Source: a virus (taxonomy: Duplodnaviria; Heunggongvirae; Uroviricota; Caudoviricetes). From it: a DNA stretch of 64,000 bases. Under the pieces are notes generated by a model. It saw only the letters and a list, made by a program, of their open reading frames with translations. It searched no databases and was not told the DNA's origin. Position 1 is the first letter of the stretch. Each line of letters begins with the position of its first letter. The position numbers were made by a program, and so were the translations under genes. The stretch lies in the IMG/VR virus record IMGVR_UViG_2861069343_000001. One strand, 5' to 3'. Of the stretch, positions 2,107 through 51,385 are shown piece by piece.

Positions 2107-2688
2107 TTACTGGAACGCCCGAACAATATCGGAGCTGTTATATATCGAAGAACCGGTCAACTGGAGGTTGACGGTGTTTTTCAGGAAATGCCCATTGCTG
2201 TCCCTGGGTGCATCGAGATCGAAACTTATGTCCTGGATAGCGACATCAATGATGTTGATCCGGCGACCAATGTTTAGCGTCACACGCTCCGGGATTCGAC
2301 CACCAATACTGGCATCTTTAAGTTCCGGGCTAATCATCGCTGACAATGCGGCGATAGCTCCTGAAACCTCCGTGAATGGGTCAAACAAAGCGATGAAAGT
2401 TACTGGCAGCGTGAAAGTCGGCGGTGTTCCCCCCTCCCAAACCATTAAGCTGTTCCAACGGGCCACCGACGTTGTTTCAGTACCAACCTGCGCAAAACCA
2501 CTGAAAGCACCAGCAACAGACCCCATGGACATACCGGTAAACGGCGCTTCCCAATTCTGGGCCATGTTCATTGCTGCCCCCTGGCTGATATATCCGGTAA
2601 CCTGGTACTGAGAGTTCGTTAAAGTAACTTTCAGAAATGGCGATACACCATCAGCCTGGCTGTAAACCCCATAAGGTATAGGTGCCAT
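2107..2688 (-). CDS. phage structural protein, unknown role
   Basis: 193-aa ORF tightly packed between tube and upstream structural genes. Confidence 0.45.
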   Translation of the reverse strand: MAPIPYGVYSQADGVSPFLKVTLTNSQYQVTGYISQGAAMNMAQNWEAPFTGMSMGSVAGAFSGFAQVGTETTSVARWNSLMVWEGGTPPTFTLPVTFIALFDPFTEVSGAIAALSAMISPELKDASIGGRIPERVTLNIGRRINIIDVAIQDISFDLDAPRDSNGHFLKNTVNLQLTGSSIYNSSDIVRAFQ

Positions 2689-2723
2689 TCAAGTTAAAGG
2701 CCGGAGTTCTCCGGCCTCCTCCT

Positions 2724-3539
2724 TTAGCCAAGGCGCTTACGGCGCAGTTTCATTGACTTTTTGCGGGCAAGTTTTGCCGCGCCGGTCTGGGCTTTTCGAC
2801 GCGCTTTTTTCAGCGCCGATTTTTGAGCCGCAGTCAGACGTTTTTTCCGCAGGCGTTTACGGATGAGTTTGATCTCACCGTTACGAACAACCTTCTTAAA
2901 TGCTTCAGTCAGCATTTCATCAGAAGTGCCAGCAACAACAAACGCCGCTTCCAGTTCATCACGGTCGTCGCTATCTAAACCAGCGATAGAGGCACCAACA
3001 TCAGCAGCTGCGTCGTCGTCTTCATCGTCAGCCAGTGCTTCGATCAGGTCATCATCTACACCGCATGCTGCGAGGAAGTCAGCAACATTTGCCCATGCTT
3101 CGTTATAGGCATCGTCCTGTTCTTCTGTAACTTCGGAGTCGTCGTCATCAGAGATACCAGCGATAGCCTGAACGAAACCATCAAGGGAGTCGAAAGTCAG
3201 ATCACCGCTATCAGCCCAGGAGAAAACGGCGTCGGCCGCATCACTCAACGCATTCTGCATAGCACTTCGATTTGCAGCTTCCAGAATCATCTGGTGCGCC
3301 TGTTCGACGGTCCATTCTTTACCGTCTTTCCCTTCCAGGATTTGCTCTGGAGCCGGGGCAGATGGAACGTTATCGTTAGTCTGTGCCGCCGGTTCCGGAT
3401 TATTATTAATAACCGGATCTGTTGGCGGTTCGGCGCTTGCTCGGGCAGACTCCATCAGCTGCACAGGATCAGAGTTCAAAGCGAAACGGGACAGTCCATT
3501 CCCCAAAAATGCCCCGGATTGAAAAAAGTTTTTGCTCAT
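2724..3539 (-). CDS. acidic protein with strongly basic C-terminal tail
   Basis: 271 aa; long D/E-rich core followed by a K/R-rich C-terminus (KRLRKKRLTAAQKSALKKARRK...); sits in the structural operon. Confidence 0.5.
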   Translation of the reverse strand: MSKNFFQSGAFLGNGLSRFALNSDPVQLMESARASAEPPTDPVINNNPEPAAQTNDNVPSAPAPEQILEGKDGKEWTVEQAHQMILEAANRSAMQNALSDAADAVFSWADSGDLTFDSLDGFVQAIAGISDDDDSEVTEEQDDAYNEAWANVADFLAACGVDDDLIEALADDEDDDAAADVGASIAGLDSDDRDELEAAFVVAGTSDEMLTEAFKKVVRNGEIKLIRKRLRKKRLTAAQKSALKKARRKAQTGAAKLARKKSMKLRRKRLG

Positions 3540-9589: not shown

Positions 9590-9905
9590 CTGGTGAGAAC
9601 GGCTTGCCCGGCAGCATCGATGTGTGCTGGAGGGAGAATAAAAGTCTAAGATGTGCGATAGAGGGAAGTCGCATTGAATTATGTGCTGTGGAGGGATCGC
9701 TGGTATCAAATATGTGTGCTGGAGGGAAAGGCAGATAATTACATGTGCACTGGAGGGAAAAACGGGTGGACAGATGTGTGCTGGAGGGAAAGTCTTGGCA
9801 AACTGCGGGGCATCCCCCTCCAGCGCACATCAAAAACGGGAAATTAGACAAGCCTTCCCGGCAGCACACATTTTTTGAATGCAGCTGCCCTCCAGCGCAC
9901 ACTTA
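9590..9905. repeat. iteron array downstream of repA (incA-like copy-control locus)
   Basis: Repeated 19-bp units gATGTGTGCTGGAGGGAaa in both orientations (e.g. 9619-9635, about 9700, 9740, 9775, and inverted copies near 9820 and 9885). Confidence 0.8.
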
Positions 9906-10763
9906 TTCGGGGAGTTTCAGCTTTGGATTGCGAGAATGGACGATTACAAAACTTTCCCGGCCTTTCTTCTCAATTGAACAGTCGAGATAGCCGATTGTTT
10001 TAAGCTGTTCTATCGCTTTCTTAATGATACGGTTTTGCTCGCCAACAGCTGACTGCAAAGCCAGGCGCTCACGGATTCGCGCGAACGATAGCGGCAACGG
10101 GTTCTGCGGAAGGCTTTCGATGAAAGTGTAAATGGCTTGTGCAGCTTCTTTCTTCGGAAGGGCACGCAAGGCGTGGTGTTGCAACAGAACGCGATAATCA
10201 AGCTGGAACAGCTCCCACAGCTTCGAATCAGCCTCCAGCTCTATCAGATCAAGGTCAGCATCAAAACGCCCGACCTTCAGCAGACCAGTCTGATAGCCGC
10301 CTTTAGCATCTTTTCCGCGCTTAAAAGCGATACCCTTGTTACGCAAGCGTCCAAGTGATTCATGAATGGTTAAACGCAGTTTCGCATCCAGACGTTTTGA
10401 GGGGAAACCACAGGCTTTAGCGAATTCCTGAAACGATAACTGGATGGTGTTTGAAGACAAGCCGTATTTGCTGAACGCGTAGATGACACCGATCCACGTT
10501 TTGAAATCAGTATCCATATCGAGTCGAGGACCGGTGATTTTAATATCATCGTAACCCTCGGCTTTAGCTATCTCCAGCTGGGAAAACGCTTTGGTGGCAT
10601 CAATCTCTTTACTTTCTCCTTTGCTCTTTGATGGCTTCGGAACGAATACCCCCAAGCGCATCAACGCTACAGGCTGCACAGTGTTGTTTGAATTAACTGT
10701 TAGTTCTTTTGCCTTACTTTCAATGTCTGCGTAAAGAATATCGGAGATAAAAGATTGATTCAT
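9903..10763 (-). CDS. repA: plasmid replication initiator RepA
   Basis: 286-aa ORF flanked on both sides by the same iteron family; size matches P1 RepA as I recall. Confidence 0.85.
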   Translation of the reverse strand: MNQSFISDILYADIESKAKELTVNSNNTVQPVALMRLGVFVPKPSKSKGESKEIDATKAFSQLEIAKAEGYDDIKITGPRLDMDTDFKTWIGVIYAFSKYGLSSNTIQLSFQEFAKACGFPSKRLDAKLRLTIHESLGRLRNKGIAFKRGKDAKGGYQTGLLKVGRFDADLDLIELEADSKLWELFQLDYRVLLQHHALRALPKKEAAQAIYTFIESLPQNPLPLSFARIRERLALQSAVGEQNRIIKKAIEQLKTIGYLDCSIEKKGRESFVIVHSRNPKLKLPE

Positions 10764-10779
10764 ATTACTTTTTCCGAAT

Positions 10780-11045
10780 TATGTGGATAGTTTTTATAAG
10801 TGGTGATAACTACCCAGGCTTTCCCGTCAGCACACATCCTATATCCCGCCAGCACACATTAGCAACCCGTCAGCACACATTTTTATCCCTCCAGCACACA
10901 TCGTTTTCCCTCCAGCACACATCGCGATACACTTCTAAGCCAGACGTGGCGCGGCCTGCAACGATCAGGGATCTATATGGATCTAATAGGGATCTGTATG
11001 GACCTAATTATTGGATCTATCCAGTGGATAATGTGGATAAGTGAA
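10780..11045. repeat. plasmid origin region: five direct iterons, GATC cluster, DnaA-box-like sequences
   Basis: Five cagcacacat-containing iterons at 10822-10924; five closely spaced GATC at 10962-11020; tgtggataa (DnaA box reverse complement) at 11032-11040 and tgtggata near 10784. Confidence 0.75.
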
Positions 11046-11081
11046 AAACCGGCCAACAAAGCCGGTTGGAAGGAAGCTGTA

Positions 11082-11474
11082 TTATTCTATGCTTTCGATG
11101 AGAAGACCATGTTCATAACATTTAAGCTCATCGCCTTCGTACAGGAATTGGTATCCAATACCACCATCTTCATGGACATTAGGGAATAACTCATAACTCA
11201 CTGAAGAGCAAATCACACCAATACAGCGATCAACGCCTTCTCGTTCTTCAGTGCTGAAAAAATCCTCTTCGGTAAGGACATGAGTACATTGCTCATCAGC
11301 ATAGGTCGGAAATACATGCTCGATGCAATCCGGGTGTTTTAAACCAAGCTGATCGGCAAGCTCGAAAGCATGACGGTATTGTTCAGAGCCTGGCTTGCCA
11401 ACAGTGATGTGCTCAATTTTGTAGATTGAAGTCGCTTTGTTGATAGTTTGCTTTACTGTTACTTTATCAGACAT
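11082..11474 (-). CDS. hypothetical protein (upfA-position)
   Basis: 130-aa ORF at the end of a minus-strand operon reading towards repA. Confidence 0.45.
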   Translation of the reverse strand: MSDKVTVKQTINKATSIYKIEHITVGKPGSEQYRHAFELADQLGLKHPDCIEHVFPTYADEQCTHVLTEEDFFSTEEREGVDRCIGVICSSVSYELFPNVHEDGGIGYQFLYEGDELKCYEHGLLIESIE

Positions 11475-11485
11475 AAAAATCCCTT

Positions 11486-11818
11486 TTAGTTACCTCTGAT
11501 AGCGCGGTTGTAATCATTAACGTTGCGATTCTTCCTGTTAATCCCCATCAGCATCGTTTCTGTATCGAGGATATACGCTGGCAGATCATCAAAATATTCA
11601 CTGCTAAACTCTGGCATCCTGCACATAAATGCACTTTTGGGGGCAGGGTGGTTAACCTTTGTCGGCGTCGGCGTTAAATTCGCTGATCGACTCCCGGAGC
11701 AACCGCTGAGTATCAGCAGGAATGCGCTGGCGAACATTACCCGCCGCAACCAGTTGTTTCTGAACTTCAGCTTTTCGTTCCATTTGCCTGTCAGCATATT
11801 TGGCTTGTTCTGATTCAT
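11486..11818 (-). CDS. putative lipoprotein
   Basis: N-terminal signal-like hydrophobic stretch followed by LSGCSGS lipobox-like motif; overlaps the next ORF in another frame, so boundaries are uncertain. Confidence 0.45.
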   Translation of the reverse strand: MNQNKPNMLTGKWNEKLKFRNNWLRRVMFASAFLLILSGCSGSRSANLTPTPTKVNHPAPKSAFMCRMPEFSSEYFDDLPAYILDTETMLMGINRKNRNVNDYNRAIRGN

Positions 11819-12101
11819 TTTTCACTTCCTGGCTGTGAAAATGTTGCTCTGCTTTGTTCATCGTCTCAATGGTCTGGTTAAGATCCATTATTGACTTATC
11901 ACGTTCCTTAATAGCCTGATCAAGACTGCCAATTTTCTCCATGGCTTGCTTTAGCTGATGACGTTCCCATGCAAACCCAGCACCAACAAGTGCGCAAATC
12001 AGAACAAGAACACCAGTAGCAGCAAGTTTCTCCTTCAAAGACAAAGCTGTTTTTAACGTAGAAAAGAATGACATGTCTTCCTCCTGAAGAAAAATTATCA
12101 A
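11652..12101 (-). CDS. membrane-anchored coiled-coil protein
   Basis: N-terminal hydrophobic helix then charged coiled-coil-like sequence; overlaps the lipoprotein ORF by about 167 bp in a different frame. Confidence 0.35.
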   Translation of the reverse strand: MIIFLQEEDMSFFSTLKTALSLKEKLAATGVLVLICALVGAGFAWERHQLKQAMEKIGSLDQAIKERDKSIMDLNQTIETMNKAEQHFHSQEVKNESEQAKYADRQMERKAEVQKQLVAAGNVRQRIPADTQRLLRESISEFNADADKG

Positions 12102-13275: not shown

Positions 13276-13292
13276 ATTGCTCTAATAAATAT
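13276..13292. promoter_or_regulatory. C1-operator-like site between divergent operons
   Basis: attgctctaataaatat matches the 17-bp ATTGCTCTAATAAATTT motif I recall as the P1 C1 operator consensus. Confidence 0.55.
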
Positions 13293-48796: not shown

Positions 48797-49438
48797 ATGG
48801 ATAAGAAAATATGCGTTGTTTCGATGAGCGTCGGCAAACCGGCGTCAATGACTGCCGCATGGATCAACAATGAGCTGATAATGGCTGAGCGGACCAGCTA
48901 CCCTGAACGCCGCCGCGATATGGAACTCCAGCTGCTGCGCGAATTGCAAGAAAAAGAGGAAAAGGGTTTTATCGTGCTGGTGGAAGAGGAAAACAGCTTT
49001 ATTACGGGTCGAGTTGGCCAGCGTGTAAGGTTGCGCGATCCCTTCATGAACGGCAGGCCGGTACTAATTGAAGCAATGCAGATTTACAAGGAGCTGGAAC
49101 GCCAGAAAGCGATCAAGTTACCGCGCAAAGAATCCGGCAAATACATCCTCCACCAAAGCATCTTCGATTCCGAACACGACAAAAAAGGCGATGAATTTTT
49201 CAACATCAACTGGAGCGAAATAACGACAGAGCACGTTCTGTCGTTGTTATGCTGCTTCGCAACGGAATATAACAACGTTGCAAGCGCCGACTACATCAGG
49301 GCAATGGCTGGAGAAGTTGAGGCCCGCCAGGAACCATCGTTACTAAGCCCTCTGATTAACATAATTCGCGGAACCCAATGTCTAGCCGACAAGCGAGTTC
49401 CTCAAGGCTTACTTACCGGCAAAGAAAACTATTTATAA
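48797..49438 (+). CDS. hypothetical protein (mat-position)
   Basis: Start moved to ATG 48797 (MDKKICVV) with SD-like aagggg; terminator-like hairpin plus T-run upstream. Confidence 0.5.
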   Translation: MDKKICVVSMSVGKPASMTAAWINNELIMAERTSYPERRRDMELQLLRELQEKEEKGFIVLVEEENSFITGRVGQRVRLRDPFMNGRPVLIEAMQIYKELERQKAIKLPRKESGKYILHQSIFDSEHDKKGDEFFNINWSEITTEHVLSLLCCFATEYNNVASADYIRAMAGEVEARQEPSLLSPLINIIRGTQCLADKRVPQGLLTGKENYL

Positions 49439-49528
49439 TTAATTACGTCAGTAGCCAATAGAGATTTTTGTTGTGGAACAAAAATATATATTTTACAATC
49501 TAGTAACTTTGGGTGGAGGATTATTACA

Positions 49529-50569
49529 ATGATGAATATTAAGCCGCTGAAAATTAGGAACAAGGTCATGAAGCCTCATAAAGCATTATTAAACCCTGAC
49601 CTAACCGCAAGGAATGTACTTACATACAGTCATTGGGATTTTGTCGAACTCTGGTTAAAGCGAAACGAAAAAGATGAGGCTCTTTTTTATTGGGAGCAAG
49701 CAAAAGTATTTAATCAGGCGGCCAATGGTTTACCCAACCAATCAGCCCCACTTTTGCACTATTATTCATTCATGAATGCAGTAAAGGCGTTACTTTCATC
49801 TCGCAATATAAACTTCAAACAGCATCATGGTGTTGCTAGGGGTGAAAATACAGCCCAAATTGATAACTTATCTGATATAAAAGTAAAAATAAAAAATGAG
49901 GGTATACTTCCGTCTTTTTCAAAATATATTGACGGCACCTCTCATGAGGGGGTGTACAATATAAAAAACCTTTTTTCTGGATTGCCATATATTCATCGTA
50001 CATATTGCCTTACTTATGATGTAACTGATGATATATTTATTCCACTGATCGATGCTGAGTTCGTTTTGAATGAGTCAGACAATAGCCTGTTTTTCACTGC
50101 GATTTTATCCAAGGATTTTCGGTTCGACACAGTTTTCGACATTCTACCGCCAGCGTTCGAATTGTTTGAAAGAGAAAAGTACAAAATAAAATCAGTAGAA
50201 TCATTACTTGATTTTAATGAAAATCAATCGTCCAACATGCCGCAATTAACTGAATTTCATCAAAAAATAAGAAGAGATCTTTACTATATCAATGGCGCAG
50301 AGACTCTTTGGTATCTCAAACGTAAAAACAATCAATCTGAGCATACTTCTGTTTCAATATCGCCATTGGTTATAACCCTAGCAGCTATGCATCGATTAAG
50401 TGAGCTATGTCGGTATGACCCACTTAAGCTAAGACAGTTACTAAATGAAAAAGAAAACTGGATTATTGCTGAATTTATTCAACAATCTCCGTCACAGTTT
50501 ATAGATGCAATTTCATCTGAAATTACTGGACACCAATTTCTTATCCCAAACGTAAGGTCTGCTTCTTAA
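49529..50569 (+). CDS. uncharacterised protein A of an AT-rich two-gene cargo module
   Basis: 346 aa; strong SD ggagga; own promoter-like TTGTGG-17bp-TACAAT upstream; AT-rich relative to flanks; no catalytic motif recognised by eye. Confidence 0.6.
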   Translation: MMNIKPLKIRNKVMKPHKALLNPDLTARNVLTYSHWDFVELWLKRNEKDEALFYWEQAKVFNQAANGLPNQSAPLLHYYSFMNAVKALLSSRNINFKQHHGVARGENTAQIDNLSDIKVKIKNEGILPSFSKYIDGTSHEGVYNIKNLFSGLPYIHRTYCLTYDVTDDIFIPLIDAEFVLNESDNSLFFTAILSKDFRFDTVFDILPPAFELFEREKYKIKSVESLLDFNENQSSNMPQLTEFHQKIRRDLYYINGAETLWYLKRKNNQSEHTSVSISPLVITLAAMHRLSELCRYDPLKLRQLLNEKENWIIAEFIQQSPSQFIDAISSEITGHQFLIPNVRSAS

Positions 50570-51078
50570 TGAATATATATATCGCATGCGCTTTAACTCA
50601 TGTTCCAAGGGAAATTTTCCATGAGTACAGTAATTGGATTCACAGCCTTGCAAAAGGTCTATCTCAAAATAACAACGTAAAATATGCTTTGATAAATAGT
50701 GACCCAGAATTATCAAAGCGCCCTGAAAGTAACAAATCTAGACTTTGTTACATTTGGGACAGAGATATGGTTGAGAAATCTGATGTAATAATTGCAGAAT
50801 GTAGTTTTCCATCAACAGGGCTAGGAATAGAGTTGCAGATTGCTGAACAGAAGAACATTCCTGTAATCATCTGTTATAAAGATTATGGGATAAATAAAAC
50901 TAAAACCATTGAATACGTGAATCCAGATGAGACTACCCATAATCTACAAGTTGGCGAGGGTTTCATTTCTCATATGGTATTAGGACTACCAAACATCCTT
51001 GATGTCATATTATGTAAAGATATTGATAACACATGCAGGAAGCTAAAAATACTGTTAGATATGATTAACCATAATTAA
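50569..51078 (+). CDS. nucleoside 2-deoxyribosyltransferase-like (SLOG/NDT-fold) protein B
   Basis: 169 aa; ATG overlaps the stop of gene A; IYIACAL ... DVIIAECSFPSTGLGIELQIAEQKNIPVII matches the NDT-family pattern (kiYlAGp ... D.GTafElGyA.a.gKPv). Confidence 0.6.
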   Translation: MNIYIACALTHVPREIFHEYSNWIHSLAKGLSQNNNVKYALINSDPELSKRPESNKSRLCYIWDRDMVEKSDVIIAECSFPSTGLGIELQIAEQKNIPVIICYKDYGINKTKTIEYVNPDETTHNLQVGEGFISHMVLGLPNILDVILCKDIDNTCRKLKILLDMINHN

Positions 51079-51136
51079 AAATTAACACCCACTTAAGATG
51101 TCTAAACCAGCCCGGTATTAACCGGGCTAGACAAAC

Positions 51137-51385
51137 TTAATCAGCATTCAGGAGCAATGCATTATCTATGATGATTTGCTCCCATTCTTCGAATGCCCGG
51201 TCGCGGACGCCCTGGGGAACGCTGTTAGTTTTGAAATCGACGACCGTACGCCATTTCCCGTCCGGGCGGTACATGCGCAGAGCTTTACTTCCCCCTTCCC
51301 TGCGCACCTCAACGTTATGCTTATCAGCAAACTCTTGTAATGCTCGTAGCGTCCCATGCTTTACTGTGTAGTATCGCTTTTTCAA
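51137..51385 (-). CDS. small protein (lxc-position)
   Basis: 82-aa ORF downstream of the darB operon on the same strand. Confidence 0.5.
   Translation of the reverse strand: MKKRYYTVKHGTLRALQEFADKHNVEVRREGGSKALRMYRPDGKWRTVVDFKTNSVPQGVRDRAFEEWEQIIIDNALLLNAD

Follow-up and report, generated by a model that had tools for sequence, protein, structure and literature searches.

What does a P1-type phage-plasmid carry where P1 itself holds the type III restriction-modification (R-M) genes res and mod (EcoP1I)? The question is raised by IMG/VR record IMGVR_UViG_2861069343_000001, a 64,000-nucleotide stretch of DNA (the window) in which the interval between mat, a maturation control gene, and lxc, which encodes a modulator of C1, is occupied by a compact cassette of two genes on the + strand: gene A (49529–50569; 346 residues), a member of the YaaC family (PF14175), and gene B (50569–51078; 169 residues), whose fold resembles that of DNPH1 and the nucleoside 2-deoxyribosyltransferases (NDTs). 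From the folds, conservation, and genomic context of the pair, we favour, with moderate confidence, an uncharacterised two-enzyme anti-phage or abortive-infection module. The mat-lxc interval contains no open reading frames (ORFs) other than A and B, and neither carries a ResIII or N6_Mtase domain, in agreement with an earlier note on the window that had reported no restriction or modification gene at this locus.

Genes A and B form a conserved operon and constitute one unit. The stop codon of gene A (TAA, 50567–50569) shares its final A with the ATG of gene B (50569–50571), giving the TAATG overlap from which the earlier note had correctly read two translationally coupled genes. Among genome loci encoding full-length A, gene B lies immediately downstream and on the same strand in 42 of 48, with a gap of -1 to 19 nt in 39 of the 40 pairs measured, and loci bearing the pair are found in Gamma-, Beta-, and Alphaproteobacteria, Bacteroidota, Planctomycetota, Nitrospirota, Spirochaetota, Campylobacterota, and Myxococcota. 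Loci that differ more in A also tend to differ more in B (r = 0.64 between the two sets of pairwise distances, Mantel p ≤ 0.0005), and no conserved third gene stands beside the pairs in E. coli, Yersinia, Aeromonas, Kangiella, and the other loci examined. A sister clade of A (34–38% identity) retains the same invariant core, with a C-terminus reading ...PDAF or PG(I/V)... in place of the invariant PNVR, and is encoded without B alongside type I R-M, integrase, caspase-like, and HD-GHKL genes (7 genome loci and 3 viral contigs), as well as in the form of single cargo genes within prophage tail and structural modules; no conserved alternative partner or third gene was found at these B-less loci. 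Because such close relatives occur alone, A may represent a self-sufficient core to which B adds a further activity, with the PNVR tail of A a candidate contact with B.

The earlier note could place no motif in gene A, and here it was mistaken, with a Pfam search returning a full-length match to YaaC (157.6 bits against a cut-off of 27, E = 6e-46; residues 34–332 aligned to profile positions 18–307 of 307). The RefSeq product name is likewise 'YaaC family protein', and neither NCBIfam nor PHROG holds a match. The family is named after yaaC of B. subtilis, a chromosomal gene of unknown function, and is widespread; we know of no role assigned to it. Structure prediction and fold comparison of gene A, which the earlier note had proposed as a check, recover a HEPN core, a four-helix up-and-down bundle of two alpha-hairpins (approximately residues 35–91 and 279–333) in which ~185 residues of alpha/beta structure are inserted between helices 2 and 3, splitting the core. 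The core matches the HEPN toxins 5yep, 7ae2, and 8xdj, with Foldseek returning no whole-chain analogue of gene A in the PDB, and no match to PDB HEPN chains found at the level of sequence.

Gene A has 772 homologues, the best 120 of which share 41–60% identity and span many phyla. Across 111 homologues of 42–60% identity, 36 positions are invariant, including H100-G101, H156-R157, M287-H288, R295-Y296, N310-W311, E315-F316, E331, T333-G334, and P340-N341-x-R343, with the insert contributing H156-R157 and R248 of its own and H100 at its start. The canonical Rx4-6H motif is absent from the end of helix 3, which reads MHRLSELCRYDP, with no histidine 4–6 residues past R289 or R295. In HEPN proteins of the AF0298 and AbiV type, the motif histidine is typically missing, with the basic residue kept and an alternative conserved histidine supplied by the segment inserted between helices 2 and 3 (PMC3710099). 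Gene A, with invariant R295 where helix 3 ends and invariant H100 and H156 within the insert, conforms to this pattern in its sequence (R295 + H100) and looks catalytic. The likeness has limits, with the inserts of AF0298-type HEPN-T and AbiV proteins reaching no more than ~60 residues (PMC3710099), compared with a whole alpha/beta domain in gene A.

The assignment of gene B as deoxyribosyltransferase-like, made in the earlier note, is upheld by structure. The AlphaFold2 model of gene B (predicted local distance difference test score, pLDDT, of 96.9) is matched by Foldseek to DNPH1, the CMP N-glycosidase BcmB, and several deoxyribosyltransferases (probability 1.00, E = 6e-6), and HMMER aligns residues 54–101 to human DNPH1, placing D64 on D80 and E88, the glutamate of the GIELQ motif, on that of the DNPH1 GYE motif. 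PDB titles list Y24 and D80 as mutational targets in DNPH1. Gene B thus presents a flavodoxin-like fold with an aspartate and the nucleophile-type glutamate in register, this glutamate being the catalytic nucleophile of both DNPH1 and the NDTs. All 40 paired homologues keep Y4, T10-H11, D64, G84, G86, and E88 unchanged, and with this intact Tyr/Asp/Glu set gene B looks catalytic. S82, six residues before E88, is nearly invariant (at least 90% of 70 aligned homologues). In DNPH1 the serine six residues before the glutamate contacts the 5'-phosphate, with nucleoside-specific NDTs having an aspartate there, and it is the equivalent position of S82 that suggests a phosphorylated substrate for gene B.

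Despite the shared fold, aligned Asp and Glu, and invariant N-terminal Tyr, gene B is only 12–18% identical to DNPH1 (Rcl), BcmB/MilB, and the NDTs. Where DNPH1 has its phosphate loop, gene B carries a different N-terminal motif, IYIACALTHVPR; it also has an extra conserved C-terminal hairpin (Y116, N118-P119-D120, L126-Q127-x-G-x-G) and is always encoded beside a YaaC gene. The clade is small: when 1.84 billion representatives were searched exhaustively with a profile, 34 proteins reached E ≤ 1e-30 and 107 reached E ≤ 1e-10. NCBIfam and PHROG hold no match to gene B, and RefSeq names it 'hypothetical protein'. A B-like domain with the same ITHVP and PSTGxGxE motifs also occurs at the N-terminus of proteins of 300–565 residues, the K/E-rich C-terminal extensions of which match no Pfam family. 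An apparent truncation of gene B to 103 residues in some E. coli contigs was rejected as a gene-calling artefact, the DNA being identical and B intact.

A toxin-like gene followed by a small partner, with overlapping stop and start codons and co-varying sequences, is also the arrangement expected of a toxin-antitoxin or plasmid-addiction module, in which A would be a HEPN-type toxin and B its antidote (cf. PsyrA, ShosA, and RqlI), the cassette chiefly securing stable inheritance of the P1-like plasmid, in place of res-mod as an addiction system, with any defence against phages secondary. HEPN domains are classic type II and type VII toxins (5yep, 7ae2, 8xdj; PMC3710099), DprA/NDT-like proteins have been reported as antitoxins in shosTA, psyrTA, and rqlHI (PMC9122126), and the res-mod genes found at the same site of P1 have themselves been described as a plasmid-addiction module (PMC6906374). 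An obligately neutralised toxin is, however, hard to reconcile with the solo relatives of A, which keep the same core in R-M/integrase islands and prophages with neither B nor any other conserved partner. Furthermore, B keeps a complete invariant catalytic set that a mere binding antidote would not need, and most pairs are chromosomal rather than plasmid-borne. We therefore regard addiction as the main rival, possible yet a good deal less probable than defence.

In the anti-phage module that we favour, the two enzymes would form a self-contained, horizontally mobile cargo expressed in the lysogen, most likely protecting the host and its P1-like prophage against other phages through abortive infection or nucleotide starvation of the invader. 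Gene A would be the central component, a sensor-effector directed at RNA or nucleotides, with a YaaC-type HEPN domain of the AF0298/AbiV kind. Gene B is predicted to take (deoxy)nucleoside 5'-phosphates, perhaps modified ones, as substrates and release their base, or else to act likewise on a different N-ribosyl compound, for instance NAD+. Translational coupling would fix the ratio of A to B, which probably act as a complex. A more specific version, nucleotide-targeting immunity, can be put forward only tentatively: here the DNPH1-like glycosidase, gated by the YaaC split-HEPN sensor, would strip phage-required and possibly hypermodified deoxynucleoside monophosphates (hm-dCMP, hm-dUMP), thereby halting phage DNA synthesis.

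The genomic surroundings of the pair are consistent with such a role. In the genome loci surveyed, most A-B pairs are chromosomal. A Yersinia pair (60% identical) is cargo of a P2-like prophage, lying between the tail-completion gene gpS and the baseplate gene gpV, and an E. coli chromosomal pair (59% identical) lies between a phage-type integrase with BrxR (a WYL regulator) and a Dpd cluster, with a Kangiella pair following an AbiTii gene near alaS-csrA. Among the 139 nearest ORFs of 38 loci, searched with Pfam and PADLOC, are type I R-M (3 loci), Hachiman HamB (2), dGTPase (2), components of MADS, PDC-M19, Mrr, DUF488, integrases, and transposases. Taken with the P1 site, the P2-like prophage, the BrxR/Dpd island, and AbiTii, these neighbours amount to a clear guilt by association of the pair with defence and mobile genes, albeit a qualitative one, as no background control accompanies it. 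The earlier note had named the cassette as a candidate defence system, and the comparative context fits that proposal; the defence itself we infer.

Two of these loci hold further features of their own. In the Yersinia prophage, the cargo (9641–11879 of the stretch examined, in the gpS-gpV and gpV-gpW intervals) comprises the YaaC pair, an 8xMP membrane protein, and a Gp49/HTH_37 HigBA-like pair, which points to a cargo region of several genes that is separate from the cos-proximal P2 hot-spot of Rousset et al. The cluster beside the E. coli chromosomal pair is a Dpd-type 7-deazaguanine cluster (QueD-DpdD-PLD-DEAD helicase).

The same survey bears on whether A and B might simply be an ordinary nucleotide-salvage or RNA-metabolism pair with no role in conflict, carried by chance in variable regions. 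Such a role would be in keeping with the chromosomal B. subtilis gene that gives the family its name, with the metabolic functions of DNPH1 and the deoxyribosyltransferases, and with the Aeromonas pair, which sits among metabolic genes. The family is nevertheless patchy across phyla, with 40–60% identity between distant taxa, the clade of B is very small (34 clusters, E ≤ 1e-30), the pair is found in prophage cargo sites and defence islands, and its carriage in E. coli is limited to 2% of genomes. This distribution is poorly explained by housekeeping, to which we attach very little weight.

Within E. coli, 109 of 5,426 complete genomes (~2%) carry the cassette, at 109 places on plasmids, almost always P1-like, and 3 on chromosomes; it also occurs in 85 PLSDB plasmids (78 from Escherichia, 6 from Salmonella, and 1 from Cronobacter), with the exact A protein encoded on 813 contigs and the exact B protein on at least 1,000. 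The cassette (1.7 kb) has a GC content of 35% against ~50% for the backbone, and it is this contrast, together with its carriage by few genomes and almost always on P1-like plasmids, that marks it as accessory and mobile. The difference in composition, which the earlier note had already remarked upon, amounts to 0.34–0.37 GC over 49400–51199 and 0.46–0.53 to either side.

Carriage next to the darB/ulx anti-restriction operon could instead be read as counter-defence or host-takeover cargo, with B destroying nucleotide immune signals or NAD-derived messengers, or A cleaving host RNAs; signals based on ADP-ribose or nucleotides are ones that an N-glycosidase might in principle inactivate. A tblastn search of 50,697 deposited phage genomes, however, found no homologue, and PHROG holds no match; IMG/VR contains the copies from P1-like elements and a small number of other prophage contigs. 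Members are mostly chromosomal and lie beside R-M, Hachiman, and dGTPase genes, and the cassette itself has its own promoter-like leader, no C1 operator, and no obvious link to the lytic programme. Counter-defence, which likewise fits the distribution poorly, is in our judgement improbable.

Several points weigh against the defence reading itself. The absence of the canonical Rx4-6H motif leaves any RNase activity of gene A uncertain, and gene B scores below threshold against PF05014 (22.1 bits, gathering cut-off 28.8; E = 1.8e-4), with many of its homologues carrying precomputed PF05014 hits. Neither protein matches a family of PADLOC-DB 2.0.0 at E ≤ 1, which in the case of gene A is a further difference from the AF0298/AbiV HEPN proteins, AbiV presumably being included in that library. 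The association with defence neighbours is, as stated, qualitative, and some chromosomal loci resemble that of Aeromonas, where the pair is an islet among metabolic genes. Finally, the addiction role described for res-mod at the P1 site (PMC6906374) means that maintenance may be the selected function of cargo at this position.

The site itself is well known. At the same coordinates, plasmid unnamed3 of E. coli FDAARGOS_433 (NZ_CP023896.1) carries the cassette with 100% identity; this plasmid is an 84-kb IncY P1-like phage-plasmid, and its genes shared with P1 include c1, cre, ref, mat, lxc, ulx, and darB. On the left, the cargo site is anchored by mat (48797–49438, + strand; RefSeq annotation and PHROG 1837, E = 2e-111), and on the right by lxc (51137–51385, - strand; annotation in relatives and PHROG 2160). 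P1-type phage genomes match the flanks of the cassette at 92–98% identity and leave the cassette itself unmatched, with homology ending at 49306, 49378, or 49438, depending on the relative, and restarting at 51133–51139, at the lxc stop codon. Alignment to P1-like genomes thus bears out the earlier note, which had placed foreign cargo at the res/mod position of P1. As the left-hand endpoints vary inside mat, the recombination that swaps cargo appears to extend into the mat coding sequence, the 3' end of which (the final 60–130 nt, 49306–49438) is polymorphic among P1 relatives.

Other P1 relatives fill the mat-lxc site differently. RCS47 has 39 bp and no gene, vB_EcoM-673R5 and SJ46 carry a RelA/SpoT-family gene and one further small gene (2132–3231 of the vB_EcoM-673R5 stretch examined), JL22 a single reverse-strand gene, and Ro157c2YLVW two genes, one of which encodes a helix-turn-helix (HTH) protein. 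A P1 record with other genes at the site, OP279344, is an engineered res/mod deletion and was excluded as natural cargo. The interval has already been published as a low-GC hot-spot under the names 'RD-1' and 'variable region 1' (PMC6906374, PMC9603915, PMC10865808), such that the replacement of res/mod, although confirmed here, is already in print, and relAP1 at this site has been shown to make a beta-lactamase costly (PMC10865808). A toxSAS-type toxin-antitoxin or defence role for relAP1-type cargo seems possible. Replacement of res/mod by AT-rich cargo is known in general; cargo consisting of YaaC and a glycosidase is absent from the three RD-1 papers (PMC6906374, PMC9603915, PMC10865808). 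Both EcoP1I res-mod and relAP1 with its partner resemble the cassette in being compact, AT-rich, inserted at the same site, and unrelated to phage morphogenesis, but their gene content is unrelated to that of the cassette.

Expression of the cassette would start from its leader (49439–49528, + strand), which holds a promoter-like element, a Shine-Dalgarno (SD) sequence, and an imperfect inverted repeat. The SD sequence, GGAGG (49515–49519), lies 9 nt upstream of the gene A ATG and is as strong as the earlier note had claimed. The promoter described there is less secure: the hexamers TTGTGG (49471–49476) and TACAAT (49494–49499) are present with a 17-nt spacer, but match the consensus at only 3/6 and 5/6 positions respectively, and a consensus promoter scan did not report the cassette promoter and found fewer promoter-like sites than in shuffled sequences (4 compared with 7.4), such that the promoter is plausible but does not rise above chance. 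The leader is weakly conserved with the regions upstream of the E. coli and Yersinia homologue pairs. Straddling the putative -35 element is an imperfect 16-nt inverted repeat (49457–49492; 88% complementary, 4-nt spacer), which could be an operator or a mere product of chance in AT-rich sequence.

A scan of the window for the P1 C1 operator consensus returned 14 matches with no more than 3 mismatches, compared with 0.37 expected by chance. These operator-like sites, at 13276, 17575, 27726, 45821, 45904, 47932, 62403, and elsewhere, one of them just upstream of ref, are predicted to mark the immunity-controlled promoters of the element. None lies at the cassette, which consequently need not be repressed or silent in lysogens.

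Downstream, between the cassette and the convergent lxc-ulx-darB operon, lies a GC-rich hairpin (51109–51128) with an 8-bp stem (AGCCCGGT/ACCGGGCT), a 4-nt loop, and 5 additional outer stem pairs. The 51 nt surrounding it (51095–51145) fold at -19 kcal/mol (z = -5.5), a value equalled by none of 200 shuffles. No T-run follows the hairpin on the + strand, and a terminator scan gave nothing above chance. The hairpin is therefore as real as the earlier note had it, but its assignment to the cassette is disfavoured, as a similar hairpin (GCCCGG...CCGGGC) stands at the empty RCS47 site, and it is more likely the mat/lxc inter-operon terminator.

How, then, does the pair compare with known systems? 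Deoxyribosyltransferase-like and HEPN domains serve as alternative effector domains in Abi-type proteins (PMC3710099), and a deoxyribosyltransferase-like N-glycosidase domain is used in conflict, as proposed for gene B, in the capacity of effector or antidote by type II retrons (Ec86/Sen2), PsyrTA, ShosTA, and AbiJ-NTD1-NDT fusions (PMC3710099; PMC9122126). The cassette, in contrast, has no reverse transcriptase, RecQ-like or phosphoribosyltransferase (PRTase) partner, or AbiJ N-terminal domain. It also differs from the HEPN-MNT toxin-antitoxin pair SO_3166/SO_3165, where the partner is a minimal nucleotidyltransferase (MNT) rather than a DNPH1-like glycosidase, and where the HEPN protein is one third the size of gene A, which furthermore lacks Rx4-6H. 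No paper was found that treats the A-B pair as a system, nor any model in PADLOC or NCBIfam or any source name that does so, and literature searches for YaaC (PF14175) together with defence, phage, HEPN, or deoxyribosyltransferase gave nothing relevant; a match to 'YaaC' in the supplements of Rousset 2022 proved to be a substring of a protein sequence. The cassette is of a familiar kind, a compact defence or toxin-antitoxin cargo that contains a HEPN protein, has an N-glycosidase effector, and occupies a phage hot-spot; the combination and the split-HEPN architecture are unfamiliar.

Carriers of the cassette, including clinical ST131-type and carbapenemase-bearing isolates, hold it on P1-like phage-plasmids that spread resistance, and the host range of phage therapy and the stability of these plasmids could consequently be affected. 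The P1 mat-lxc site (RD-1) also stands out as a hot-spot of the defence type, similar to the ones known from P2 and P4. Should the cassette prove to be a defence module, it would represent a new pairing of two known conflict folds within 1.6 kb and two genes, with high-confidence models available for both. A nucleotide N-glycosidase might then serve as an immune effector, and if the nucleotide-targeting reading holds, gene B would be a bacterial counterpart of human DNPH1 in immunity. For the YaaC family (PF14175), a defence role would provide the first functional handle.

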